From Candidatus Uhrbacteria bacterium (GTDB lineage Bacteria; Patescibacteriota; Patescibacteriia; UBA9934; GWF2-40-263), in assembly GCA_016206085.1 (NCBI GenBank), contig JACQSF010000009.1, forward strand, positions 9,412 to 73,411: a DNA stretch of 64,000 nt, in the 5' to 3' direction. Each line of letters opens with the position of its first letter. Within the stretch, counting starts at the first letter, position 1. Below, piece after piece: positions 9,679 through 45,253 of this stretch. The position numbers and the translations under genes were made by a program. Below the pieces are notes generated by a model, which saw nothing but the letters and a program-made list of their open reading frames with translations, ran no database searches and was not told where the DNA came from.

Positions 9679-10047
9679 TTATGGCCTCAGTACACTAATA
9701 TCGCGAATTTTCTTGAAGACAACATCTCTCGTCGCTACGGGAGACTGTAGCAAAACAGCCGTGGCTGCAATCACACTATCAGAAACGGTAAGCTTTAATT
9801 CTCGTCGAATACGCGCGGCTTCCCTGGCAATTGACCCATCAACGTCCACTACCAGGACGTACTGAAGCCATGACTCAATCAGAAATATCTCGTCGTGTGA
9901 AATATTCTGAAAACCTAAAAGCTCTACCACGGTAATGGTAGAGACACAAAATCGTTCACCTTTCGATCGTTGTCGATTGATCCATTCAACAATAACCGGA
10001 TCCTTCTTGATGAAAAAAATGACAACGTTCGTATCAAGTACAATCAT
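9679..10047 (-). CDS. PIN-domain toxin (VapC family)
   Basis: MIVLDTNVVI...STITVVELL...DSVIAATA...TRD PIN motifs. Confidence 0.88.
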   Translation of the reverse strand: MIVLDTNVVIFFIKKDPVIVEWINRQRSKGERFCVSTITVVELLGFQNISHDEIFLIESWLQYVLVVDVDGSIAREAARIRRELKLTVSDSVIAATAVLLQSPVATRDVVFKKIRDISVLRP

Positions 10048-10220
10048 ACTCGGACATGATCCGCCTCTTTGCGTATCTTCCGTTGATATGCAACCGGATC
10101 GATTCGCTTCTTTTCCCACATTCCACAAATGGCGCTCCATGCATCATCCTCCGCCGATCGCATGACTCGATTCTTAGTACAGGACATTTTCACTCGATTT
10201 TTTGCAACAGCAATAGTCAT
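10044..10220 (-). CDS. Putative antitoxin of the PIN toxin (58 aa, not in ORF track)
   Basis: Manual translation MTIAVAKNRVKMSCTKNRVMRSAEDDAWSAICGMWEKKRIDPVAYQRKIRKEADHVRV*; GxW...D...YQRK.R.E tail; ATGA overlap with the toxin start. Confidence 0.7.
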   Translation of the reverse strand: MTIAVAKNRVKMSCTKNRVMRSAEDDAWSAICGMWEKKRIDPVAYQRKIRKEADHVRV

Positions 10221-10261: not shown

Positions 10262-11377
10262 TTAAATCGCCACCATCGACTTAATCGCGCCCCAGATTTG
10301 GTCGCCGAAGGTCACGAAATCTTTGTAGGTGACCAGCACCACCAACACCATCAGAAGCATGAACCCTAGGTTGTGCACCGTTACTTCCACTTTCTGATTT
10401 ACGGCACGTCCGCGGACTTTCTCGATAAGCAAGAACAAGATCCGTCCGCCATCGAGCGCCGGGAATGGCAACACGTTGATGATCGCAAGATTAATCGAAA
10501 GCACAGCCGTAAACTGAAGAAGATAGATGAGCCCCATGGCCGCCACTTGGCCGGTCATGACCGCAATGCCAACCGGACCAGAAAGATCAACAGCGACTTC
10601 TTGACGCACTACCAAATCCGCAATAAGTCCACCGAACGCTTTCAAAATCTCGATGGTGAACTGGTACGTCGTATAGATTCCCTGGCCGATCGCTTGAAAG
10701 AATGGATAGGACACAAGGCCGGTAGAGACGAATGCGATTCCCACGCCGGTTGTATCTACGGACTCGAGGTACGCACTCGTCAATGTATAGGTCGAGTAGG
10801 ATCCATCCTCCTTCTGAACAAGCACGTCAACGCCGTCCGCGGCGTGCTGGGCAAAATAGTCGCGCGCTTCCGCGTCGCTCGTTACCACCGCCCCATCAAG
10901 GGACTCGATCACGTCGCCGCTCACCACGCCGGCTTGTGCCGCAGGTGAACCCTCCACAACTTGCATCACCGTAATCTCCTGGGACTCCACACGTGCAGAG
11001 GCGGGCAGTGAGTCGTCGATGATGCTCGGAAGTCCGGCCATGTACCCAATCGAGAACAACACCGCCGCGAGTACGAGGTTCATCGCCACACCGGCGATCA
11101 ACACCACAAATCGTTTCCAGGCTTTCTTTGAGGCAAAACTATCCGGGTCATGCGCCTGCTCGCCGCTCTCGCCCTTAATCTTCACGAATCCGCCAAGTGG
11201 AATCCAGTTGATCGAGTAAACCGTCTCGCCACGTTTCACGCCCCATAATCGAGGAGGAAACCCAAATCCAAACTCCTCCACCTTCATGCCCATGCGCTTG
11301 GCCATCACAAAGTGACCAAGTTCATGTGCAAACACAAGGAGCGAGAGGACGATGATAAACAATAAAAGTGTTCCCAT
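10262..11377 (-). CDS. rseP: RIP metalloprotease RseP (site-2 protease with PDZ domain)
   Basis: HELGHF, NWIPLGGFVKI, PDZ (GSPAAQAG), NVLPFPALDGG. Confidence 0.93.
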   Translation of the reverse strand: MGTLLLFIIVLSLLVFAHELGHFVMAKRMGMKVEEFGFGFPPRLWGVKRGETVYSINWIPLGGFVKIKGESGEQAHDPDSFASKKAWKRFVVLIAGVAMNLVLAAVLFSIGYMAGLPSIIDDSLPASARVESQEITVMQVVEGSPAAQAGVVSGDVIESLDGAVVTSDAEARDYFAQHAADGVDVLVQKEDGSYSTYTLTSAYLESVDTTGVGIAFVSTGLVSYPFFQAIGQGIYTTYQFTIEILKAFGGLIADLVVRQEVAVDLSGPVGIAVMTGQVAAMGLIYLLQFTAVLSINLAIINVLPFPALDGGRILFLLIEKVRGRAVNQKVEVTVHNLGFMLLMVLVVLVTYKDFVTFGDQIWGAIKSMVAI

Positions 11378-11488
11378 AAATCGCGTCAATCATAACGATT
11401 TTCTGGATTGCAAGCAATATCTTAGCACATGGAATGCTCTACGAACCATTTCTAATCTCAGTATTATAAAAAAGTGACCTACGAGGGG

Positions 11489-12526
11489 TCACAGCAGATT
11501 GGCACGTTCGCGGCCAATGGTGCGGAAATCGCGGCCGAGGAGTGCCGAGATGAGCGTGATTTCCGCGCTCACGATCGGTGTCGGGATGCTGGTCAGCTCT
11601 CCGATGCGCTCCCAGCACACGAGACCGGCGGCCGTGTCCTCGGTGAGGTAGCGGTGCTCGAGGACGTTCGGCCCCTTGAACCCGGCCGCGCGGCCGCACG
11701 CGAGGAACTCGAGATCCTGTCGCTCGGGCTCGGCCATGGAGCCGGACTTGGAGAACAACCCGCGCAGTTCGTTCCATGCGAGCCCGCGGCCCTCCACCTC
11801 CGCGAGCAGCGTCATGCGCTCCGCATCCTTGCGCCCGAGGAGCGCGCGCACCCCGGGGGTGACCCCGTGCTCGTACATCCGGAAGTCTGGGTCGAGCTCG
11901 ATGCGGCTCGCGGAGAGCAGGCAGGGCGTGGTGTGGAAGAGCGGGTTCGGGTTCGAGAGCAACACGGACTGGACTGTGCCGCCGAACACCGGGTTCGGGG
12001 TCAGGATCGCGAGCATCTCCGCGAGTTCCGGCACGGACGACGGATCGCCCGAGTAGAGCACCGACGGGGTGAGCACGGTAACGCGCGCGACCTCTGCGTC
12101 GTGCGGGGAGATCCGACACCCGTAAGGGAGGGTATTGGCCTCCACGAGCAGCGGCACCCGCGCCTGCGAGCCGAGCCGCCGGAGCAGGAACAGCGAGCCG
12201 AGGTTGCCCGGGAAGTACAGCACCGCGCGGACGGCATCAACGACGGGCGCGAGCATGTCCGCGACCGCCTTGTGCGCGTCGGCCACCGTGGTGACGACCA
12301 CGAAGTCGACACCTTCCACCTGCGAGAGATCGGCCGCGAACGCGACGAACCCCTCGGCACGCAACATCCCGTAGATCCGAACCCCCTTCCCCGCGGCACG
12401 GATATTGTCGAGGCGGTCGATAAATCCTGGCACTTCCGAGAGCGTGACGCGGTACCCGTTGGAAGACAGATGGGCCGCGATGGTGGTGCCGGCGGCGCCA
12501 GCACCGATGATAAGAATGTGAGGCAT
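11489..12526 (-). CDS. NAD/NADP octopine/nopaline (opine) dehydrogenase family protein
   Basis: Rossmann GAGAAG; EANTLPYGCR; LSNPNPLFH; HRYLTED...GL...PTP, the opine dehydrogenase C-terminal domain. Confidence 0.88.
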   Translation of the reverse strand: MPHILIIGAGAAGTTIAAHLSSNGYRVTLSEVPGFIDRLDNIRAAGKGVRIYGMLRAEGFVAFAADLSQVEGVDFVVVTTVADAHKAVADMLAPVVDAVRAVLYFPGNLGSLFLLRRLGSQARVPLLVEANTLPYGCRISPHDAEVARVTVLTPSVLYSGDPSSVPELAEMLAILTPNPVFGGTVQSVLLSNPNPLFHTTPCLLSASRIELDPDFRMYEHGVTPGVRALLGRKDAERMTLLAEVEGRGLAWNELRGLFSKSGSMAEPERQDLEFLACGRAAGFKGPNVLEHRYLTEDTAAGLVCWERIGELTSIPTPIVSAEITLISALLGRDFRTIGRERANLL

Positions 12527-12550
12527 CTACTAACTCCAATCAGCAACGGA

Positions 12551-12579
12551 ACCGTATCCATTTTTTGAATAAATGTCAA
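12551..12579 (-). promoter_or_regulatory. Putative sigma70 promoter of the opine dehydrogenase gene
   Basis: TTGACA-17 nt-TACGGT on the minus strand. Confidence 0.5.
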
Positions 12580-12604
12580 GGGAATATGAAAAAACCGCCC
12601 GGGA

Positions 12605-12745
12605 TTAGCCGAGCGGGACGAGGATGGCGCAGATCGCCTGCGCGTCCGGGATCACGGTGCGTCCCGCGCAGTTGGGTCGGATCTTCAGCCCGCGCTCGAC
12701 GAGCACCTTGGCGATGGCGAGCGTGTCCGCCCATACCGTGCATGT
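12605..12745 (-). pseudogene. 3' fragment of a GC-rich gene truncated by the IS remnant
   Basis: Reads ...TVWADTLAIAKVLVERGLKIRPNCAGRTVIPDAQAICAILVPLG* with island-type codon usage and no start. Confidence 0.4.
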
Positions 12746-12943
12746 TATCTCCATCCAGAACTTCGTCTACCAGCGACGACCAATGCTGTTGAGAATACGA
12801 ATGGGCGGATTCGCTCTGTCCTCAATCGTGCTCGTGGGTGTCGGACTCCTGAATCACTCATTCACTGGATCACGGCGTTTCTCTGGTTCCATCCGACAGT
12901 GAAATGTCGACCAAAATTACCAACAGAAATTCGGCGTGTATCC
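12746..12943 (+). mobile_element. IS256-family transposase C-terminal remnant with probable right end
   Basis: Manual frame gives YLHPELRLPATTNAVENTNGRIRSVLNRARG..., the IS256 TTNxxExxN motif; ends at ...CAGAAATTCGGCGTGTATCC. Confidence 0.6.
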
Positions 12944-13284
12944 CACATATGCCCGAGCCATTCGGACACTGCCAAAGGAACTCGCGAAGTCACTCACCTA
13001 CGACCAAGGGAAAGAAATGAGTGACCACAAAGCGTTTACATTTTCTACCGGCATGAAGGTATACTTCGCTCATCCAAGCAGTCCATGGGAACGTGGCACA
13101 AACGAAAATACCAACGGACTTATTCGTCAGTATTTTCCAAAGGGCACGGACTTCCGTACAGTCTCAACAAAAGAGATTAAGCGGGTACAGCGTCAGTTGA
13201 ATCAACGACCAAGAAAGACGCTCGGCCACCTCACGCCAGAAGAAACCATTAACAATATCGTTGCGTTAAAAGTTGGAAACTAAG
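12944..13284 (+). mobile_element. IS30-family transposase C-terminal remnant with right end
   Basis: TYDQGKEM...YFAHPSSPWERGTNENTNGLIRQYFPKG...LNQRPRKTLG; ends in GTTGCGTTAAAAGTTGGAAACTAAG; N-terminal part missing. Confidence 0.9.
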
Positions 13285-13287
13285 TAT

Positions 13288-13315
13288 CAAAAAACCTCCC
13301 CGTTACGAGGAGGTT
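13288..13315 (-). terminator. Intrinsic terminator overlapping the ychF-like stop
   Basis: Minus strand AACCTCCTCG-TAA-CGGGGAGGTT followed by a T-run. Confidence 0.55.
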
Positions 13316-14376
13316 ACGATCCAGAGGACGTCGCCGTCCTGAACCGCGTAGTCGCGGCCGACCGTTTGGAAGGTACCGCGGGCGCGGATGGCCTGTTCGC
13401 CGACCTCGCAGATTTGGTCGAGCGAGAACACCTGCGCCTTCAGAAAGGTGCCGAGGAAGTCCGTGTGGATCATTCCGGCGGCCTCGTGCGCCGTGGTTCC
13501 GCAGCGGATGGGCCACGCACGGGTCACGCCCTTGCCGAACGTGTAGAAGGTGACGAGGCCAAGCGTGTCGTAGCAGCCGCGAACCACCTCGTCGACGGAC
13601 CCGTCGACGCCGAGCGATGTACGTAGCTCCGCGCGCTCCGCCACGTCGTCGATGTCCGAGAGTTCGCGCTCGGCGCGGATGCTGAGCGGAATCGCCGGGT
13701 GGCCGAGTGCCTTCTCCCAGTGCGCGCGGTCGAATGGGCCGTTCTCGCCGACGTTCATGACCACGAGCACGGGCTTGAGCGTGAGGAACTCGTAGACGCG
13801 CAGGCGCTCGAGCTCGTCGGGGGTTAGTCCGGCCTCGCGCGCGGTCTTGCGCTCGTCGCGCATGGCGCGCCAGAGCTTCTCGAGCGCGGCGTGCTTCGCG
13901 ATCGAATCCTTGTCGTTGGTGTTGCGCGCGCGGGATTTCTCCGCGATGCGGTACTTGTTGACGAGTGCGAGGTCGGCCATGACCAGCTCCTCGTCGATGA
14001 TCCGGAGGTCGCGCGACGGGTCGACCGAATCCTCCACGTGCGTCACGTCGCCGTCCTCGAAGGCGCGAACCACGTGCAGGATCATGTCCACGCCGCGCAC
14101 GTGCGCGAGGAACTCGTTGCCGAGCCCCACGCCCTGATGCGCGTTGCGAACCAGCCCCGCGATGTCCACGAACTCGATCTGGCTTGCCATGAGCTCCGCG
14201 CAGCCGGTGGCTCGAGCCAGGCGGTCGAGCCGCTCGTCCGGAATCGTGACGATGGAGACGTTCGGTTCGATCGTGCAGAACGCAAAATTCTCCGCGGGCA
14301 CGTTCCGGCGGGTCAGGGCGTTGAAGAGGGTGGACTTCCCGACGTTCGGGAGTCCGACGATTCCGACTCGAAGCAT
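13303..14376 (-). CDS. ychF: YchF/Obg-family ATPase (divergent, island-encoded)
   Basis: GIVGLPNVGKSTLFNALT, FCTIEPN, FVDIAGLV, GLGNEFL, NVGE G4 variant, TGS domain AAGMIHTDF...QDGDV. Confidence 0.88.
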   Translation of the reverse strand: MLRVGIVGLPNVGKSTLFNALTRRNVPAENFAFCTIEPNVSIVTIPDERLDRLARATGCAELMASQIEFVDIAGLVRNAHQGVGLGNEFLAHVRGVDMILHVVRAFEDGDVTHVEDSVDPSRDLRIIDEELVMADLALVNKYRIAEKSRARNTNDKDSIAKHAALEKLWRAMRDERKTAREAGLTPDELERLRVYEFLTLKPVLVVMNVGENGPFDRAHWEKALGHPAIPLSIRAERELSDIDDVAERAELRTSLGVDGSVDEVVRGCYDTLGLVTFYTFGKGVTRAWPIRCGTTAHEAAGMIHTDFLGTFLKAQVFSLDQICEVGEQAIRARGTFQTVGRDYAVQDGDVLWIVTSS

Positions 14377-14403
14377 AGGGATTCTCCAGGAAACCGAACT
14401 GAC

Positions 14404-14432
14404 AGTGTAGCCAAACCGCGCGACGTTGGCAA
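14404..14432 (-). promoter_or_regulatory. Putative sigma70 promoter of the ychF-like gene
   Basis: TTGCCA-17 nt-TACACT. Confidence 0.55.
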
Positions 14433-14453
14433 GAAAAAAGCCCGAGCTAGCGC

Positions 14454-15104
14454 TCAGGCCGTGATGGCATCGAAGAAAAACCGGCTCGCAAACGCCGCCG
14501 CGGGACCGGGATCCGGGAAGCGGTCGTTGTGGAGCTCGGACGGCGCGAGGCCCGCGCCACGGTAGATGCGCTCCGCGTCCGCGGGGCCGATCTCCGGGTG
14601 GTAGGCCGTCGCGAGGATACGATCCCCGACCGCAAACGCCTCCACTGCGTCACGTGGCGAGTCCGCAAGCAGGCGCGCCCCTGGCGGCAGCCGCACGATG
14701 TGGTTGCTGTGGAACTCAAACTGCACGTAACGGGTGCACAGCGGGAACATTCGATGATCCGCGAGCTGACGGATCTCGTTCCACCCGCGCACGGTCTCGC
14801 CGCGCACCACATCTCCTCCGAGCGCGAGCACAATGAGCTGCGCACCGAGGCAGATGCCCACCAGCATGGGCGCGGCCGGATCCGAGGCGAGCGCGCGGAC
14901 GCGGTCAAATTCCTCCTGGATGAACGGATGTCTAGCCCGATCCTCCTCGTTGGCGGACATGGGCCCGCCGCCGAGCATGAGGACATCAAACGACTCCGGA
15001 ACCGTCTCGCCGAGATAGCGCCGGACCACCCTGGAACCGGGAAGCCAGTTCATGAAGGCCGAGCCGCGTTCCGGGGCGAACTCGCAGACAATGATCCGCC
15101 TCAT
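14454..15104 (-). CDS. Class I glutamine amidotransferase-like protein (possible gamma-glutamyl hydrolase)
   Basis: GGGPMS, GICLGAQL (catalytic Cys), YHPE (His-Glu); AAGGAG RBS; ATGA overlap with the upstream gene. Confidence 0.85.
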   Translation of the reverse strand: MRRIIVCEFAPERGSAFMNWLPGSRVVRRYLGETVPESFDVLMLGGGPMSANEEDRARHPFIQEEFDRVRALASDPAAPMLVGICLGAQLIVLALGGDVVRGETVRGWNEIRQLADHRMFPLCTRYVQFEFHSNHIVRLPPGARLLADSPRDAVEAFAVGDRILATAYHPEIGPADAERIYRGAGLAPSELHNDRFPDPGPAAAFASRFFFDAITA

Positions 15105-16411
15105 GATGCACTCCTTTGTACGATGTTCCACCAAGGCGAGCGACCTGTGAGCCGCTCGTACATCTCGGGATACCCTTCACCCCCGCGCTCGATGGTGAGG
15201 TGTCGGCCACTTCCGGTCGTGCGGATCATCCCATACTCATCCTCCGGATCCGGCACCCGGAGGGCGACGATTTTCTCCCAGTCCGGCTCGGCGCCGAGCC
15301 CCTCGCCCGCGAATGCGACAGACCGGCCGTCCTCGGCCGTCTGAAACGCGCCGTGGATCAGGTGTCGCGCACCCGTGAACCAGTCTGACGCCGGCTGCCA
15401 TCCGTCGCACGGGAGCGAGACAGTGCGGAGCACCGACGCGGCGTGCTGGTCGTAGCAGCGACCGATCGCTGTCGGGAAGGTCCCGCCGACGAGGCTTCGC
15501 ACCGGCTGGTCAACGGTGGCCTCGACCGCCAGACGCTCGAGCTCGAGTGACCGACGGATCCCGCCGAGCTTCTGGATCTTCATGTTGAGCCAGACGCCCG
15601 AGCGCGCGAGAACGCGTGCGTCAGACTCGTTGAGGAACGACTCGTCCGCAACCACATGCAGGCCGAATGCATTCCGTGCGATTCGGTGCGCGTACACGAT
15701 TCCCTCGGCGCCGAAGCGCTCGCCAATAGGCTGCTCGCTGAACGCCCAGGTCTCGATCCATGGGATGTCCCGCGCCCACGCGATTACACCCTCCCACTCC
15801 TCCGGTCCGAGCGAGCCGTTGAAGTCCGTGGAAAAGGTGCCCTGCGTCTCGTGTGCGACCTCGGCGGCCGCGTGCAGGACGGTGCTGGTATATTCCATGT
15901 CCGTGCCGCACTTAAACTTGGGCGTGCGCCCGACGGCGAGGATGCGCCCGACGGCCGCGCGGATCGCGGGCTCATTGGCGAGGATACCGACGCTCTCGAG
16001 CACACACCCGCTTCCCGGCCGATGGCCGTACAGGTTGCAGACGTTGGTACCGGTCATGCGCGCGGCGGCTGCATCGAGTGCCATGTTGATGGCCGCCTGC
16101 GTCGCGTATACACCGTCACGCTCGCGCTCGACCCACGCCTCGTCGAGTAGCGTCTCGCGATCCCCGATGCGGCGGCCAACGAGCAGCGCGGAGTGGAGCG
16201 CGAAAATGATGTCCCACGCGTCGTAGTGCGAGAACGGGAAATCGATCGACGCTTCGCCGACGACGGTGAACGGTGCACCCGCGTCCGGCTCCACCGTGAG
16301 GCGGAGCAACACGCGCGGCAGGTCACGTAACGTCCCGAACCCGAGCCGAAACGGCTGGGAAAGCGGGATCGCGAGCAGCAGGATGTCTCTGCTAATGATC
16401 GTAGCGTTCAT
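15101..16411 (-). CDS. Enolase-superfamily enzyme, MLE subgroup (racemase/dipeptide epimerase/OSBS-like)
   Basis: IPLSQPF cap, AINMALD, KFK, metal ligands DFN / EQP / DES, second Lys in NMKIQKLGG. Confidence 0.82.
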   Translation of the reverse strand: MNATIISRDILLLAIPLSQPFRLGFGTLRDLPRVLLRLTVEPDAGAPFTVVGEASIDFPFSHYDAWDIIFALHSALLVGRRIGDRETLLDEAWVERERDGVYATQAAINMALDAAAARMTGTNVCNLYGHRPGSGCVLESVGILANEPAIRAAVGRILAVGRTPKFKCGTDMEYTSTVLHAAAEVAHETQGTFSTDFNGSLGPEEWEGVIAWARDIPWIETWAFSEQPIGERFGAEGIVYAHRIARNAFGLHVVADESFLNESDARVLARSGVWLNMKIQKLGGIRRSLELERLAVEATVDQPVRSLVGGTFPTAIGRCYDQHAASVLRTVSLPCDGWQPASDWFTGARHLIHGAFQTAEDGRSVAFAGEGLGAEPDWEKIVALRVPDPEDEYGMIRTTGSGRHLTIERGGEGYPEMYERLTGRSPWWNIVQRSAS

Positions 16412-16452
16412 CGATCCCTCCTTGATATCTGGAAATATAAAGAGCCACTCCG

Positions 16453-16481
16453 ATCTTGGGACGTCTTGAACGTCCTGTCAA
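16453..16481 (-). promoter_or_regulatory. Putative promoter with palindromic spacer upstream of the enolase-family gene
   Basis: TTGACA-17 nt-CAAGAT; the spacer is GGACGT-TCAAG-ACGTCC. Confidence 0.4.
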
Positions 16482-16498
16482 GGAGTGGCCGTTGACTT

Positions 16499-17380
16499 CT
16501 ATGCGAGGATCTGATCGATGAGTGCTTGGACGCGCACGAACACGTCCGTCCCGTGCTGAGGCTGCGATCCGGTGAGCCGGTCCCAGAGACGGAGAATACC
16601 ACCCAAGTGACGCACCAACCCACCCATGGTCTTGTCGGCACCCCAACTAGGCAAAGCTTGCTCGATCTTAGCACGAACATCCTCACCGGGCTTGAACAAG
16701 ATCCGTCGCTCGTCGGCGACCGCGATGTACGGGGACGCCCGCATGCGTTTCGGATCGAGCGTCCGTCCCGCGACCACGTAGGCGAAGGACATGTGCTCGT
16801 CGCAGCGCACGCGGAACTCCCGGTCGTACAGCCGTTCGTCGAAGCCAAGCTCCGACTCGCCCGCCTGGAGGAGCCAGCCGAGCTTCAGACGCACGCTGTG
16901 CGTCTCGCGGTACCAGAGCATGTCCGCGAGCTCGCGGCGCACGTACTCGGCCTTGTCGGTGTGCACGCGCGCGAGGAGCGCCTCGTACTCGTCCGAGCGG
17001 TCGAAGTCACTCGAGAGGCGGACGTCTACCGGGATGTCGGCGGCCCTCGCGATCTTGCCGATCACGTCCCGGTACTCCGCCGCCATGGCCGCGACCACTT
17101 CCGGCGTGCAGAAGGGGTTAGTCAGCGCGTGCGTGTCTGCGATGTGGTGGTAGATGCGGTCGAGCCCCATCAGCCTGCGAAGTCGCTCGGCTCCAAGGAT
17201 GAAGATGAGGATGTCAAACGGAAGCCCGATCGACGGCGAACGCGGGGTGGTCAGACCTGTCCCGTAGTAAACCGATCCGAAGGGTTTCGTGAGAAACGCC
17301 GGATCGATCATGGCGAGCGATGGTTCCGAGTGGAACAGGGGCTCGTTCTGCAAAAAAATCCTGAGTTGATCTTCAGTCAT
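16499..17380 (-). CDS. Class Ic aaRS-like Rossmann-fold protein without HIGH/KMSKS (CDPS-like)
   Basis: VYYGTGLTTP, HHIADTHA (compare TyrRS/TrpRS IADxHA), EYVRRELAD (compare CDPS YVxxE), LKLGW; 293 aa with no anticodon-binding domain; ATGA-coupled to the upstream ligase. Confidence 0.55.
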   Translation of the reverse strand: MTEDQLRIFLQNEPLFHSEPSLAMIDPAFLTKPFGSVYYGTGLTTPRSPSIGLPFDILIFILGAERLRRLMGLDRIYHHIADTHALTNPFCTPEVVAAMAAEYRDVIGKIARAADIPVDVRLSSDFDRSDEYEALLARVHTDKAEYVRRELADMLWYRETHSVRLKLGWLLQAGESELGFDERLYDREFRVRCDEHMSFAYVVAGRTLDPKRMRASPYIAVADERRILFKPGEDVRAKIEQALPSWGADKTMGGLVRHLGGILRLWDRLTGSQPQHGTDVFVRVQALIDQILA

Positions 17381-18801
17381 ATGTCTTCGTCCTTGTAGGT
17401 GAGGAAATACTGCCGAAACAAATCACGATCGATCGGTTTATTGCCGATGCTACGCTCTCCCCACATCTGTCGCAAGCTCCGAAACGCGATGTCCGACGGG
17501 CTGCCGAACACGCTGCGGTCTTTCCAAATCTCGCGAACCTGGTCGATCTCCTCGGACGAGGCACCGAGCTCACACATACCATTCTCGGCGAGCTGGGTCT
17601 GCCGTTTCATGACGTCGCGCGCCGACAGACGGACAGGTTCGCCTTCCGTCATCTGCCAGAGCTTGCCGTCCATGCCGAGCGTCATCGCAGACCACCGATT
17701 GTCATGCAGGAGCGGCATGGGCAGGAGCGGGATATCCGCGGCTCGCGCACCAATGACGTGTCCGACGGCGAAGGCGACCATCGCATAGTCCTCGAGCGAG
17801 GTCGGCTGTATGGAAAGCGGCCGAAACTCGAGTACGATCTGCGGATCGGATTCCCCGATGCGAAGAAATTTAATCCGCGCGTCGCGCCAGTACAAGCCGG
17901 TCGCGAGCGGGAACGCCGCCTCCGGGATGTGCAGGATCGACGGCTGGTCGTGGAGATCCTCGAAGTACGCCTCGAGGGTGTGGAAATAGCCCGTCGGGAG
18001 CCCCGTGCGTCCACTCAGGCCACGCGACACCTCCCCAGGAGTACGAATGTCATGACTGAACTCCCACACGATCCCGCGGATGTCCGCGTAACCACTGTCC
18101 ACACCGTCAACGAAGCGCGCGTTTGCACCCATCGCCACGGCGTATGGCCCGGAGACCAACGCCAGATTCAGGAGCTGGAGCGCCTCCTCGGAGGAGTGAC
18201 AATCAAGGTTGTACTGCACGCTCGACATCATCCCCAGTCCGGCTGCGTGGTCGCAACGAATGAGTCCCCCGTCCCGACCGATGAAGGTCGGGAGTCCGTC
18301 TCGACGGTGGCGGCGGTGGAAGTCGGGGACGAGGACGTAGCGATCCTTCGCGCGCTTGGAGCGGCCGCGTTGGTCTGCGTGGACGAGCGGATCGGATCCG
18401 AGGCGCACGATGGAAGCTCCAACCGCGCCAACCCGACTCCGGAGGAGCGAGGTTTCGGAACGGATGGCATTGCGCAACTGACCAAACCCGCCCGCGACCG
18501 TGATGTCGATTGGAGGGGTCATGATCTCAATCTGGGCGGCACCAAGCTCGTATTGGTAGGACGGATACTTCTGAACTAACGCGTTGCGCGTGTCCTCGTC
18601 GAGCGGCTCACCCTCCCGTGTCATACAGGAGAACTCGAGCTCGACGCCGACGCGTCTACCGGTCTTGTTGGATCCGGTGTCGACCGTGCGGTCGAGAATA
18701 GACTCCGCCGTCTCACGGAAGAGCGCACGCATCTCTGGGAAGAACGGATAGAGCGCATCAAAGCGCTCCGCACGACTGGTGGAAAATCGCCGGAACATCA
18801 T
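17377..18801 (-). CDS. Glutamate--cysteine ligase family 2 (GCS2)-type carboxylate-amine ligase
   Basis: VGVELEF, YELGAAQIEI, SSVQYNL, ANARF, LEFR; start taken at MMFRRF (ATGA overlap with the tyrS stop). Confidence 0.8.
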   Translation of the reverse strand: MMFRRFSTSRAERFDALYPFFPEMRALFRETAESILDRTVDTGSNKTGRRVGVELEFSCMTREGEPLDEDTRNALVQKYPSYQYELGAAQIEIMTPPIDITVAGGFGQLRNAIRSETSLLRSRVGAVGASIVRLGSDPLVHADQRGRSKRAKDRYVLVPDFHRRHRRDGLPTFIGRDGGLIRCDHAAGLGMMSSVQYNLDCHSSEEALQLLNLALVSGPYAVAMGANARFVDGVDSGYADIRGIVWEFSHDIRTPGEVSRGLSGRTGLPTGYFHTLEAYFEDLHDQPSILHIPEAAFPLATGLYWRDARIKFLRIGESDPQIVLEFRPLSIQPTSLEDYAMVAFAVGHVIGARAADIPLLPMPLLHDNRWSAMTLGMDGKLWQMTEGEPVRLSARDVMKRQTQLAENGMCELGASSEEIDQVREIWKDRSVFGSPSDIAFRSLRQMWGERSIGNKPIDRDLFRQYFLTYKDEDI

Positions 18802-20084
18802 GCACCCTCCTGAGCGTTGATAATGAAACGGACGAACGTGCGCTTGCCGACGCGCACGTCCTGCTGCGTCCCGGGAGCCGGAACGGGATCGGACTGCTTC
18901 ATCACCTGATCCGCACCCGCGGTCACCAGGTGGACGCCGCCGCCGTCGAGCAGTCGGCGCGCGTCGGAGTTGCTCGCGGCCTGCGTGATGCCGAGCGCCC
19001 GCAGGAGGGTGATCCAGGTGGCTGCCTTGCCCGCGGGAACCTGCACGACCGGAAGGTCGGCAGGCACTTCCTTCTCGACGATGCGCCGACGGAAGTCCTC
19101 GTCGGCCGCGTCGGCCGCCGCGAGACCGTTGAGATCCGCGACGACGACTCGCGCGAGTAATCGCTTCGCGTTGCGCGGATGTACAGAGCCGTTCACGATG
19201 GCCGCGGCGAGTTCGTCCCACTGAGCGTCGCGCATGTCTGTGAGCAACTTGAAGTACGACTCCACCTGCGCGTCCGGGATGGACATAATCTTGCCGAACA
19301 TGTCCACCGGGTCGGCGGTGACTGGGATGTAGTTGCCTAGCGACTTCGACATCTTGTGCCCGTCACCCGTGGTGCCTAGCAGAATGTCGGTTGTGATCGC
19401 GGACTCCGGCGATAATCCCTCGTTCTCCATCACACGCTCGGTGGTGTAAAAGTTGAGAAGTTGATCGTCACCGCCGAGCTCGATCTCACTCTTGAGTTCG
19501 ACCGAGTCGATGGCCATGAGGAGCGCGTAGAGCATCTCGGCGACCGTGACGGACTCACGCTTGCGGAAGTCGTCGCGTTGCATCGCCATCGAGACGTTGA
19601 TGCCGCGACACACGGTAAAAAACCGCGCCAGCTTGAACACATCGAGCCACTCGCTGTTGAACCGAACCTCGGTGCGCTTCAGGTCGAGGATCTTCCCCGC
19701 CTGCGCTGCGAAGAGCTCCGCGTTGGCGCGAATCTCGGCGGACGAGAGCACAGGACGGGTCGACACGCGACCGGTCGGATCCCCTACCTGGGCGGTGAAG
19801 TCGCCGATGAGTAGCACAACGTGGTGGCCCATGTTCTGCAGGCGGCGCAGCACGAACAGCGGAACCGCATGGCCGAGATGAATGTCCTTGGCCGTGGCGT
19901 CGATGCCGTACTTCACGCGTAGCCCGCGTCCTTCCTTGCGGGCGATCACGAGGGTTGCGCGTAGACGATCCTCGCCGACGATGTGCTTAGCGCGCTCCTT
20001 AAGCAGCGCGAGCTGTTCGTCCGGCGTCAATCCGGAAAGGTTCGGATGCTCGAGCAACGAGCGTTCCAGTGCCTGAATGTCCAT
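18798..20084 (-). CDS. tyrS: Tyrosine--tRNA ligase (divergent, island-encoded)
   Basis: VKYGIDATAKDIHLGH (HIGH), IGDFTAQVGDPTGR, NSEWL, ELGGDDQ, KMSKS, S4-like C-terminus (VGKR). Confidence 0.9.
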   Translation of the reverse strand: MDIQALERSLLEHPNLSGLTPDEQLALLKERAKHIVGEDRLRATLVIARKEGRGLRVKYGIDATAKDIHLGHAVPLFVLRRLQNMGHHVVLLIGDFTAQVGDPTGRVSTRPVLSSAEIRANAELFAAQAGKILDLKRTEVRFNSEWLDVFKLARFFTVCRGINVSMAMQRDDFRKRESVTVAEMLYALLMAIDSVELKSEIELGGDDQLLNFYTTERVMENEGLSPESAITTDILLGTTGDGHKMSKSLGNYIPVTADPVDMFGKIMSIPDAQVESYFKLLTDMRDAQWDELAAAIVNGSVHPRNAKRLLARVVVADLNGLAAADAADEDFRRRIVEKEVPADLPVVQVPAGKAATWITLLRALGITQAASNSDARRLLDGGGVHLVTAGADQVMKQSDPVPAPGTQQDVRVGKRTFVRFIINAQEGA

Positions 20085-20132
20085 GTTGTTTTTCCTTTTC
20101 ATAAAAAACAAATTGTGAAAGAACGACAAAAA

Positions 20133-20161
20133 ACGCTATCAATTTCCTCAAAAAGTGTCAA
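20133..20161 (-). promoter_or_regulatory. Putative sigma70 promoter of the tyrS-like operon
   Basis: TTGACA-17 nt-TAGCGT with an extended -10 TG. Confidence 0.55.
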
Positions 20162-20249
20162 CAAAGTAAATCGAGACCGCTGAAATATGCTCTCCATACC
20201 TGATTCGGAATGTTCCTCAATTTTTTTCTGATCGGTTGATACGGACATA

Positions 20250-21662
20250 TTATTCTGGCTTCATTGTGCCAACTTCTGGGTACTTGGCAATGAGTTCGAC
20301 AAATTCATTCATAATCTCGTCCATCCGCTCCTGTGTCTTTGCCTCGAACACGAGCACGAGCTTGGGGAGGTTTGACGAGGCCCGGACAAGGCCCCAGCCG
20401 TCATCAAACTCAACGCGCGCCCCATTTACATCTATGACTTTCTCTGAACCGTACTTCTCTTTCACATCCTGTACGAGCTTATCGACAATTCCATACTTCA
20501 CTTCATCCGCACAATGTGCCTCGTAGGTCGGAGACGTGGCATACGTACTCACTTCGTCATGAAGCTCCGCAACTGATTTCTCCTGCGAGGTCACATACTC
20601 AAGGAATTTCATCGAAGCAAACAGACCATCGTCATAGCCAAAATAGTCTCGACGAATAAAAATATGTCCACTCCGTTCACCAGCGACAGGAGCATCCACC
20701 TCTCGGGACTTTGCTTTGATATGCGAGTGCCCTGTTTTCCAGATCACGGGTTTCCCTCCATGAGCGATCACGTCATCCGAAATCGCACGTGTCGCTTTTA
20801 CGTCATATACAATGGAAGCTCCGGGCTCCTTGGCGAGCGCAAGACGTGCAAGAAAGATTAAAATCTTGTCCGGATACATGGTTCGACCACGTTCATCAAC
20901 CACTCCAAGGCGATCCCCATCGGCGTCGTAACCCAATCCACAATCCGCTCCAACCTCCATCACCTTTGCTTCCAATGCTTTTTGAAATCCAACAGAACTG
21001 GGGTTGGGTTCATGGTTTGGAAATGTCGCATCGGGTGTTGTGTTTTGTTCTATAACTTCGCACCCAAACGCTTTGAGCGCCGGAACGTTAATCGGCCCAG
21101 CAGCCCCGTTACCCGTATTCACCACAACTTTCAAAGGTCGATGGAGCGTTGCGCGACTCGTGAGATCTTTGATATATGCCTGAACGATCTCACCCATCGA
21201 CACGTCTTCACAAGACCCCTCACCGCTCAAAAAATCTTCACGCACAATCCGATTATAGAGTTCGTCGAACCCCTGAAGCGTACTGGACTTATCCATTCCA
21301 AGTTTTAGACCAAACCAACCGTTGGGATTGTGCGAGGCCGTACCCATACAAATTCCTTTCACATCTAAGTGGTACTGCGCCCAATAGGCAACCGGGACCG
21401 TCACCTGACCCACATTCTTTACGTGAACTCCCGTAGAAACCAAACCTTCAATGGCTGCCTCCGCCAGTCCTTTCGAGTAAGAACGGTTGTCATACCCGAC
21501 CACACACTGGTTCACACCCACCTCGATCAAGGTCGATCCAAAGGCCTTTGCGATCAATTTTACGGAGGTTTCGTTTAACTCCTCAGGACCAACTTGTCCT
21601 CGAATGTCATACTCCCGAAACATGGTTCGTTTTAGCTCTGGCATATTTTTGACGGATATCAA
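20250..21662 (-). CDS. Phosphomannomutase/phosphoglucomutase
   Basis: FREYDIRG, TASHNP, DADGDR, GERSGH, VRASSN; the start may be 21644 (MPELK). Confidence 0.93.
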   Translation of the reverse strand: MISVKNMPELKRTMFREYDIRGQVGPEELNETSVKLIAKAFGSTLIEVGVNQCVVGYDNRSYSKGLAEAAIEGLVSTGVHVKNVGQVTVPVAYWAQYHLDVKGICMGTASHNPNGWFGLKLGMDKSSTLQGFDELYNRIVREDFLSGEGSCEDVSMGEIVQAYIKDLTSRATLHRPLKVVVNTGNGAAGPINVPALKAFGCEVIEQNTTPDATFPNHEPNPSSVGFQKALEAKVMEVGADCGLGYDADGDRLGVVDERGRTMYPDKILIFLARLALAKEPGASIVYDVKATRAISDDVIAHGGKPVIWKTGHSHIKAKSREVDAPVAGERSGHIFIRRDYFGYDDGLFASMKFLEYVTSQEKSVAELHDEVSTYATSPTYEAHCADEVKYGIVDKLVQDVKEKYGSEKVIDVNGARVEFDDGWGLVRASSNLPKLVLVFEAKTQERMDEIMNEFVELIAKYPEVGTMKPE

Positions 21663-42962: not shown

Positions 42963-44822
42963 CTAGTAGACGGCGCCCACCGAGATGCTGGTCGTGTTCC
43001 CAAACCACAGCAGTGCGCTGCAGCCCAGGTTCGTGTCGCTCTCGGATCCGGGACTCCAGGTCACGAGATCGTTCTCGTCCCAAGAGTTGCTGTCCAGGGT
43101 GATGTCCACCGCCACCCCGTACTCCAGGAAAGCACTACTGTAGTGGCCGTAGCAGTACCAGTCATCATACGTGCCATCGCCGTCGCTATCGACGTCGACG
43201 TTGAAGCGTACACCCAGAAGTCCTGAGTAGTCGCCTTCATCACTCCAGCTCACCTCGTCATCCTCGGTCACACTGGTTTCGACCAACCAGTAATCGCCCA
43301 GGCTCGAGATGGCATAGACGGGCTGAACCGTGAGCGTGAGCTCGGGGGAGTTGGCCGGATAGTCCACTTCGACCGTGAGTGTGCTCACGTCGCTGGTCTC
43401 TTCCTCTTCCTCCTGCTCGACTTCCTCCTCGGACTCCTCTTGCTCCTGCTCGACCTCGTCGGCGGGATCATCCTGCTCCTCATCGGGATCATCGTAGTCG
43501 TCTTGGTTCAAGTCTCCACCCTCACCAGGACCATCGCTGAGCTCCAGACCGCCTCCGCAGGTCGTGACCGCCTCGTAGTCCAAACACATCTGATCGGTTG
43601 TGCAGCTGCCGATCTGGTGGAGTTCTCCCACGATCCCGTCGTCAACCGTGAGGATGTCACGACGATAGTGATTCATGAGCAAGTAGACGTCCCAGGTCTT
43701 CACCGGGAGCGCAAACCCGCCGGAGATGATGTACACATCTGAGGCATCGGACTCCTTGACGATGGTGCCGTCGCGCATGCTGACATAGCTCGCGCTGGGC
43801 GGCCAGTTGGTCATGTAGGAGCTGGTGTCCCCGTACGTGTCAGGCTCGTTGCTCCTGTCGTAGGAAAGACCCCAGGAACTCAGAACGTCCTCCCAACCCG
43901 TCCCTCGCACTCGCGCGCGGTACCGGTTGGAGTCGCTTGCGGCGCCCACGATGAGCCAAAGCTCCTCCTCTGTGTCGAAGGCGGCATCGATGAACGTCTC
44001 GCCGACGATGTCCGACCCATCGCCGTAGCAATCAAGTTCCGACTCAGAGACAAGCGTGACGTCGTCGAAATCGTACTCGAGTCCCCAGAAGGTGGACTCG
44101 TTCTGGATCCATCGCGTCTTGCCGTCTTGAAGCACGTACACGCGCGCGTTGTCCGGGGTCATCACGAGCGCCCCGTCGGGGTGCCAGAGGTTGATCAAGA
44201 GATCGGACTTGTAGAAGTCACCGTCCTGGGGATCTCCCTGGCTGCGGATGCCGCAGGAGAACTCCTCCGAGGAGATTGTGGTCACCTCGGTTCCATCGCT
44301 CTGGTTCCCCGTCCAGTAGGTCGCGGGAATCGAGGTGCCGTTGTCAGCCGTGAGCGAAGCATCGCCTTGGTGCAGACCGATGTGCACATGCTCACCGGTG
44401 GCGTTTCCGGTCTTGCCTTCGTAGCCCAGGAGGCTTCCGACCGACACCTCGTCCCCATCGGAGATGAAGATGTCGGAGAGGTGTGCAATCACGACGTAGG
44501 TTCCGTCACCCAGATCGATGTTCACATGGTAGCCGAAACCCGAGGTCGCGGACTCCATGTGCACGTAGGCCACACCCGTGACCGACGCGAACACTTCCTC
44601 GTCGGCGTAGTCATTCGTGTCCAGATCGATGTCGTAGCGGGTCGAAATACCCGTGTGGCTGTGGGTGCCACCCGCGCCCTGGGTGCAGAGCTTCTCGGTA
44701 CCCGCGGAGAACGGGAGCTCGATCACGAGTCCAGCTCCGCCCTGATTGCTCTGGTTGGAACCATCGTACTGAGGAATGAACAGAGAACCGCAACCCGTGA
44801 GGGTGAAAAAGACGAGGGACAT
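42963..44822 (-). CDS. M23-family peptidase lipoprotein with acidic C-terminal domains
   Basis: MSLVFFTLTGC lipobox, GGAG RBS; H...YDIDL, AHLS, GKTGNATGEHVH; more GC-rich than its flanks. Confidence 0.8.
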   Translation of the reverse strand: MSLVFFTLTGCGSLFIPQYDGSNQSNQGGAGLVIELPFSAGTEKLCTQGAGGTHSHTGISTRYDIDLDTNDYADEEVFASVTGVAYVHMESATSGFGYHVNIDLGDGTYVVIAHLSDIFISDGDEVSVGSLLGYEGKTGNATGEHVHIGLHQGDASLTADNGTSIPATYWTGNQSDGTEVTTISSEEFSCGIRSQGDPQDGDFYKSDLLINLWHPDGALVMTPDNARVYVLQDGKTRWIQNESTFWGLEYDFDDVTLVSESELDCYGDGSDIVGETFIDAAFDTEEELWLIVGAASDSNRYRARVRGTGWEDVLSSWGLSYDRSNEPDTYGDTSSYMTNWPPSASYVSMRDGTIVKESDASDVYIISGGFALPVKTWDVYLLMNHYRRDILTVDDGIVGELHQIGSCTTDQMCLDYEAVTTCGGGLELSDGPGEGGDLNQDDYDDPDEEQDDPADEVEQEQEESEEEVEQEEEEETSDVSTLTVEVDYPANSPELTLTVQPVYAISSLGDYWLVETSVTEDDEVSWSDEGDYSGLLGVRFNVDVDSDGDGTYDDWYCYGHYSSAFLEYGVAVDITLDSNSWDENDLVTWSPGSESDTNLGCSALLWFGNTTSISVGAVY

Positions 44823-45253
44823 GACATGCTCCGTTGAGCTGGTCGTTGATGGGTTGGCGCCAGAATGGTGAACCTTCCCGGGCGACGCGCCAGATCTTGC
44901 GCGTCGACCCGTGCGGGTCAACCAAGCATGGTCATCACCCCACTTCCTGCCCCTCTCTCCAGGAACTTTTGTCTATTGATCGTCTAGTCCGACATGACCC
45001 CGGCGGGGTCTTTGGCAAACGGCTTCTGTTACGGGTGTCTGCCACAGGCCAGTCGAGAGAGTGATGTGGATGTCGATCTATCTTTACAACACCAAAAAAC
45101 CGCTTGAAGGTCAAGCAGTTTTTGGCTAAATTTAGTGCCTTTTTTGTACACGACCGTTTTACAGTCCGCTTACAGTTAACAACATTTTTTCTCAAACACA
45201 TTGATTTTTCTGTTCACTGCCCAGAACAACACAACAGTGTGAATACCAACGCA

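Follow-up and report, generated by a model that had tools for sequence, protein, structure and literature searches.

A mobile, tyrosyl-tRNA synthetase-linked gene cassette with a putative racemisation module in a Candidatus Uhrbacteria genome

We analysed a window of 64,000 nt from contig JACQSF010000009.1 of a Candidatus Uhrbacteria bacterium (assembly GCA_016206085.1); all coordinates are window positions. The window contains a GC-rich island in which the gene of a tyrosyl-tRNA synthetase (TyrRS) stands beside aarsL, encoding a synthetase-like protein, and beside enzymes predicted to invert an amino acid. The island is a real, mobile and partly decayed cassette. By profile comparison, aarsL is the tyrosine counterpart of the orphan pseudo-synthetase ORF1, and the novelty lies in a tyrosine form of the ORF1 system that is coupled to a gamma-glutamyl racemisation route, the latter being probably new. 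We favour the view that this mobile tyrosine-charging cassette provides D-tyrosine (D-Tyr) proofreading and salvage for the charging of tRNA-Tyr, a view held with slightly more doubt than confidence.

The association of aarsL with tyrosine charging is evident from its genomic neighbourhoods. We collected 77 aarsL loci, which form 65 groups at 90% identity; 31 of these have at least 3 kb on both sides and make up the dereplicated set used below. A TyrRS gene lies no more than 6.5 kb from aarsL in 27/31 loci and none is nearby in the other four. A tRNA-Tyr gene is found within 3 kb in 13/31, and three times it lies some 30 nt upstream of aarsL. The identity of this tRNA matches the type of the partner TyrRS, with C1-G72 accompanying the archaeal-type enzyme. 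Nine proteins are fusions of aarsL and TyrRS. Either partner can come first, and the TyrRS may be bacterial K-type, bacterial Y-type or archaeal-type. One search yielded five longer homologues, all of them such fusions; among the best 150 of a second search, four of five long proteins were, the fifth being a GNAT-aarsL fusion. In addition, a YbaK-type tRNA deacylase stands beside aarsL in 7 of the 65 groups. In the 3.6 kb of one compact locus (L087:57-3643), aarsL is accompanied by two TyrRS genes, one short and bacterial, the other archaeal and fused to YbaK, and by two tRNA-Tyr genes whose first-pair identities are opposite; these apparently make up two orthogonal TyrRS/tRNA pairs. A distant aarsL homologue (E 1e-17) was also seen at L112:5875-6573 of genome G801, with no cassette genes nearby.

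Operons of the Candidate Phyla Radiation (CPR) consisting of tRNA-Trp, an ORF1 of unknown function lacking Trp, and the tryptophanyl-tRNA synthetase (TrpRS) TrpRS-A were described in 2017 (PMC5370408). Genome G326 carries such a tRNA-Trp/ORF1/TrpRS-A operon as well as a tRNA-Tyr/aarsL/TyrRS cassette. We identified its ORF1 through the operon, a homologue in the organism named in PMC5370408 and the Trp-free sequence; 116 of 120 of its homologues likewise contain no Trp, which ties the superfamily to amino-acid shortage in translation. The profiles of ORF1 and aarsL align (probability 95.9, E 6e-9, 213 columns), and on this basis aarsL is the tyrosine counterpart of ORF1. Membership of the ORF1 family proper was considered and rejected, the partner of aarsL being TyrRS, not TrpRS-A, and its residue W169 being invariant. 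The G326 operon region (L115:4976-9882) also encodes a 160-amino acid (aa) protein of unknown function and a 780-aa YbaK-TrpRS-tRNA-binding fusion.

The aarsL product has a whole class Ic synthetase fold but no HIGH motif. Its HIGH site reads S-x-G-L, without His, and the segment R-P-K-A-S-P-Y aligns at the place of KMSKS, with basic residues that vary in distant members. TyrRS and TrpRS align to residues 1-293, most cyclodipeptide synthases (CDPS) only to about 206. The pocket, mapped from motifs and secondary structure, comprises G40, Y146 and E150, which are kept in 97/97 close members, with E or Q in 90/90 distant ones. The motif Y146-x3-[E/Q]150-x2-D153 matches the Tyr/Gln/Asp residues of TyrRS and the Tyr/Glu residues of CDPS; the Ser nucleophile of the latter is absent, Gly42 standing at its place in all 97 close and all 90 distant members. 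At position 152, the place of the CDPS Pro, Pro is never among the top residues. The gene had been described from the sequence as aaRS/CDPS-like, and we rejected its assignment as a cyclodipeptide synthase because it has neither this Ser nor this Pro and keeps the C-terminal synthetase domain. The features rather suggest a TyrRS-derived protein that would have lost the adenylation motif and kept the tyrosyl pocket.

Such a protein might be a non-catalytic partner subunit, one half of a heterodimer or of a pseudo-dimer like the double-length TyrRS of trypanosomatids. When tyrosine is short, it would stabilise a second TyrRS or adjust its properties, and the module would supply L-Tyr from scavenged D-forms. 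We consider this improbable. Ten residues are invariant in 90 diverse aarsL members, mostly around the pocket; bacterial K-type, Y-type and archaeal-type partners are unlikely to share one interface; and the four loci with no nearby TyrRS also argue against it.

The TyrRS of the island is of the bacterial type (TIGR00234, 250.6 bits against a cut-off of 113.8), with HIGH (as HLGH) and KMSKS intact. Met replaces the conserved Gln of its YxxxQxxD helix. This replacement is common to a clade of 11 TyrRS sequences that includes the island enzyme (SH-aLRT 98, quick tree), and is also present in four short TyrRSs.

The enzymes that accompany aarsL come as exchangeable modules. Module A, consisting of a GCS2-family ligase, an MLE-subgroup racemase/epimerase and a class I GATase, is present in 11/31 loci (ten by script plus L042, where the GATase was found by tblastn) and is the one carried by the island. 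Module B, made up of a GNAT-like protein, an MLE enzyme and a VanX-like M15 peptidase, is found in another 11/31, and module C, a single two-Cys racemase of the Asp/Glu family, in 5/31. The remaining four loci hold only a GATase fragment (one), only YbaK (two) or none of these (one). No locus combines two modules, the 552-aa GATase-cluster protein of L027 being left out of this count. The labels stand for clusters of which one to three representatives were scanned, the GNAT label of module B is taken solely from Atlas features, and no p-value is given since kin loci are not independent. The MLE enzyme of module B is nearest to the OSBS/NSAR model and its M15 peptidase has intact metal motifs, while the module C enzyme scores as TIGR00035, a broad amino-acid racemase subfamily, and not as glutamate racemase. 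The nearest relatives of the window aarsL are in three module-A loci (56-67% identity), followed by three racemase loci (50-52%). Because the three mutually exclusive modules exchange, their simplest common denominator would be inversion of the alpha-carbon (D/L) of an amino acid.

That amino acid could be non-aromatic, such as Glu or Ala for the cell wall, with the link to tyrosine due to hitch-hiking. Both the racemase family and the VanX-like fold are chiefly associated with wall metabolism, and G010 and G326 have no PF01177 racemase. This explanation is nonetheless very unlikely: three unrelated modules would each have joined the same tyrosine cassette, a PF01177 racemase is already encoded on a different contig of the genome of the window (G000), and the module C enzyme is assigned to TIGR00035 rather than to glutamate racemase.

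For module A the catalytic residues are in place. The MLE enzyme of the window has K165-x-K167, D196, E226, D256, K278 and P-x-D336, that is, both catalytic lysines and three metal ligands, which are at least 90% conserved in 32 homologues; its scores are below every curated cut-off. In GCS2, the Glu and Arg residues are shared by 90% or more of 17 homologues, and the Cys-His-Glu triad of the GATase is intact. From family knowledge, it is plausible, as the initial annotation had suggested, that the GCS2/GATase pair adds and removes a gamma-glutamyl group around the epimerisation. Routes of acylation, racemisation and deacylation are known for D-to-L conversion from the available parts of PMC12006748, which cites Sakai et al. 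2006 for D-amino-acid conversion by NSAR, and of PMC12363236, which describes the DgcN route. By analogy, module A is probably a gamma-glutamyl version of such a route, and a new one: no description of gamma-glutamyl amino-acid inversion was found in the openly searchable literature, including the available part of PMC7431475, subscription literature being outside the search.

As described in PMC6765224, TyrRS, which lacks an editing domain, charges D-Tyr, and DTD normally removes it. Bacillus subtilis has a second, D-Tyr-discriminating TyrRS, TyrZ (as cited in the available part of PMC11005379). DTD (PF02580) was found neither in the genome of the window nor in any of five other cassette genomes, and was present in 2 of 40 relatives. 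Since TyrRS charges D-Tyr unedited and DTD is mostly absent from these lineages, we favour defence against D-Tyr and its salvage as the role of the cassette. The cassette TyrRS would charge tRNA-Tyr and, as gene content shows, can replace the native enzyme. The charged tRNA would be the substrate of the aarsL protein, which would most likely take over from the missing DTD by hydrolysing D-Tyr-tRNA. GCS2 would then use ATP to gamma-glutamylate the D-amino acid, whether freed in this way or imported, the MLE enzyme would epimerise the gamma-glutamyl amino acid, and the GATase-fold hydrolase would release the L-form. Conversion of D-Tyr to L-Tyr by the module would prevent recharging. The chemistry of the module is taken from family knowledge, with substrate and direction being our prediction. 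A bolder form of the proposal is possible but rather doubtful: aarsL and ORF1 could be an unrecognised class of chiral proofreaders, derived from a class Ic synthetase and hydrolysing or, through an invariant pocket Lys, epimerising D-aminoacyl-tRNA. The class would be coupled to a new ATP-driven gamma-glutamyl deracemisation and, as a mobile upgrade, could take the place of the housekeeping tyrS in symbionts without DTD.

Several observations weigh against proofreading and salvage. No tRNA-Tyr was found in the island or in its own, 83% complete assembly, and most relatives have neither DTD nor the cassette. The pocket was mapped through motifs and secondary structure because the profile alignment of aarsL with archaeal-type TyrRS was weak (probability 8.7). 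No depletion of Tyr was found in the cassette TyrRSs (2.2%, n=27, against 2.4% in 12 native enzymes, p = 0.47). Opine dehydrogenase (3/31 loci), EamA transporters (3/31) and the LeuA-like gene (two loci) are unexplained by proofreading alone, as are the genes of the aromatic pathway (prephenate dehydratase/dehydrogenase or DAHP synthase) in 12/31 loci. Moreover, two modules fit the L-to-D direction at least as well, if not better: the reversible module C racemase would create D-Tyr where none exists. M15 peptidases, for their part, typically cut before D-residues.

These same observations bear on deliberate production of D-Tyr or another inverted amino acid. Acting like a CDPS, aarsL would use the inverted amino acid or Tyr-tRNA to build an amide into a small product or a cell-wall part, and the producer would be protected by the variant TyrRS, by YbaK and by YchF. 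The racemase and VanX-like modules suit an L-to-D direction; the aromatic-pathway, transporter, opine dehydrogenase and LeuA-like genes would fall into place; and aarsL combines a CDPS-like Tyr/Glu pocket pair with the loss of HIGH. The GNAT-aarsL fusion and the altered amino-binding residue of the cassette TyrRS clade point the same way. Against it stand the missing CDPS Ser and Pro and the retained C-terminal domain, three of the 31 loci that hold just tRNA, aarsL, TyrRS and at most YbaK, and the ORF1 operon of G326, which has no tailoring enzyme. The tailoring genes are also not conserved, one being destroyed in the window. The tRNA-dependent product proposed in the initial annotation thus stays a live rival, and the main one, with a core other than CDPS, though on balance we think it unlikely.

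The genomic site shows how the cassette entered. All four regions fetched from the same genus have a native tyrS next to lemA/pgm, with 33% identity to the island TyrRS; rseP comes after this tyrS in the three regions that extend far enough. Because this native tyrS occupies exactly the interval of the island, the island displaced it in place. The host assembly (877 kb in 34 contigs) has no other TyrRS. The same genes adjoin pgm and lemA in G010, a 99% complete genome from a different genus, which again has no other TyrRS; the cassette TyrRS is also the only one found in G836 (98% complete) and G265 (97%), while G544 has a second. Five additional cassette genomes, whose completeness is unknown, gave either two class Ic matches (two genomes) or three (three genomes); judged by size, each set of three consists of two TyrRS and one TrpRS. 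That tyrS and ychF are sole copies had been named beforehand as counting against the pathway, and this holds for tyrS, which sits at the native site; ychF too occurs once in the incomplete host assembly, though G010 has a native ychF elsewhere in its genome. The pgm at the border is only 31-33% identical to that of relatives at the same site and has therefore been exchanged as well, lemA and rseP being 78-94% identical.

Counting the host, aarsL was present in 3 of 72 genomes of the family (three genera), 3 of 401 of the class and 3 of 401 of the phylum, a rare and patchy distribution that suggests horizontal transfer. The proposal of a conserved, horizontally moved, tRNA-tied unit, unexpected for this lineage, was upheld, and the unit recurs across Patescibacteria. 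The seven genes as one travelling pathway were not: opine dehydrogenase is found in 3/31 loci, ychF in 8/31, and three loci have no enzyme module. The island is probably not a single seven-gene metabolite pathway.

Chance clustering or misassembly has a negligible likelihood. The contrast in GC content would allow for it, as would a drop in read depth from 36 to 23.5 at 20220-20249 in run X1. Set against these are the left border, which lies within one unitig, the same gene order in other genera, and a gene set that is conserved even where the order differs. The island is contiguous: the X1 unitig spans rseP into the island (11282-14344) and a second one covers 14315-20249. Run X1 is possibly the source sample. 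All 30 bins of the region were covered by contigs in 4/4 runs of one study. The depth step itself hints at strain variation.

Seven co-oriented genes of the families named beforehand were all recovered by open reading frame (ORF) and profile searches (Table 1), together with the three ATGA overlaps, at tyrS/GCS2, GCS2/aarsL and MLE/GATase. The GC content is island-like, at 59-66% over 11.0-20.0 kb against 45-56% (1-kb bins, 1-11 kb) and 48-55% (20-27 kb), and at third codon positions it is 0.75-0.89 in the seven genes.

Table 1. Features of the island and its borders in the window.
Feature	Position	Strand	Basis
tyrS (cassette TyrRS, 428 aa)	18798-20084	-	TIGR00234 over cut-off
GCS2-family carboxylate-amine (gamma-glutamyl) ligase, 474 aa	17377-18801	-	PF04107 over cut-off, no equivalog
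aarsL, 293 aa, HIGH-less whole class Ic synthetase fold	16499-17380	-	no Pfam or NCBIfam match
MLE-subgroup enolase-superfamily racemase/epimerase, 436 aa	15101-16411	-	PF13378
class I GATase fold, stand-alone, 216 aa	14454-15104	-	PF00117
ychF (YchF paralogue)	13303-14376	-	TIGR00092 over cut-off
IS30 transposase fragment, C-terminal third of profile, GC 47%	12936-13283	+	profile match
LeuA/homocitrate-synthase-like (HMGL) gene remnant	12608-12739	-	comparison with intact gene of loci L038 and L042
opine dehydrogenase	11489-12526	-	PF02317
phosphoglucomutase-family gene (pgm), upstream border, host-like GC	20250-21662	-	family match and comparison with relatives' pgm
rseP, native downstream flank, 78-91% to same-genus relatives	10262-11389	-	comparison of same-genus regions

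Gaps of 87 nt (aarsL-MLE) and 77 nt (GATase-ychF) interrupt the gene order. Terminator-like hairpins lie 3' of the GATase, ychF, the LeuA-like remnant and the opine dehydrogenase. They are four of eight found, where shuffles expect 6.9, so that only their placement is informative. Because such hairpins follow these four elements, the island is probably several transcription units, and their placement marks tyrS-GCS2-aarsL-MLE-GATase as the tight unit. The IS30 fragment and the LeuA-like remnant, overlooked in the initial annotation, sit between ychF and the opine dehydrogenase. The remnant is 42-46% identical over 34-39 aa to the intact gene of 414-420 aa in L038 and L042; it is an eighth gene, destroyed here by the IS30 fragment. 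The island YchF is 45-47% identical to the native YchF of relatives and has promoter-like and terminator-like sites of its own, and the closest solved relative of the opine dehydrogenase is N-(1-D-carboxyethyl)-L-norvaline dehydrogenase. The genes for YchF, opine dehydrogenase and the LeuA-like protein belong to a single sub-lineage, as optional additions to the cassette.

Elsewhere in the window, a 153-aa ORF between rseP and pheS (9679-10140), presumably PIN-like by its motif, was unmatched in the fetched same-genus regions, and another short GC-rich stretch (60%) spans 43001-45000. At other aarsL loci we observed a tRNA gene with a CUA anticodon, called tRNA-Pyl by ARAGORN (L074:3162-3236), PheS-like ORFs of 596 and 654 aa, against a usual length of about 350 (L088:1766-3556 and L096), and four related ORFs of 434-568 aa from one unannotated family upstream of the cassette (L085:1-8345).

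With its tyrosine counterpart fused to TyrRS and accompanied by three interchangeable racemisation modules, ORF1, open since 2017, gains a first concrete and testable lead. If proofreading is the function, the cassette would represent a new mechanism for homochiral translation. The gamma-glutamyl route to amino-acid inversion, if confirmed, could be used in biocatalysis. For genetic code engineering, the natural variants of TyrRS and the orthogonal TyrRS/tRNA pairs would be of interest. If production is the function, a tRNA-dependent D-amino-acid product would come from a lineage thought to make almost nothing.

As in the NSAR and DgcN routes, a two-lysine MLE-subgroup racemase would work between an acylating enzyme and a deacylase, and module B has the same layout. 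In module A, however, GCS2 and a class I GATase replace the CoA-dependent GNAT or DgcN acyltransferase and the matching deacylase, and the MLE enzyme is linked to tRNA charging. The proposed likeness to DTD and TyrZ is that D-Tyr is kept off tRNA-Tyr and that a second TyrRS is involved; the cassette has no DTD fold, and its TyrRS bears the Gln-to-Met change, with a putative D/L selectivity. With CDPS (AlbC, from the part of PMC3105412 available), aarsL shares a class Ic-derived Rossmann fold, a Gly/Tyr/Glu pocket (G35, Y178 and E182 in AlbC) and the absence of HIGH. The double-length, pseudo-dimeric TyrRS of trypanosomatids likewise joins two TyrRS-fold units in one chain, one of them without catalytic motifs, whereas aarsL, in most cases a gene of its own, retains a conserved pocket and has TyrRS partners of several types. 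Closest is the ORF1 system, where tRNA, pseudo-synthetase and class Ic synthetase are arranged in the same way; the aarsL cassette differs in its TyrRS/tRNA-Tyr partners, natural fusions and racemisation modules, in a cognate amino acid that is not depleted, and in a synthetase that can be the sole copy.

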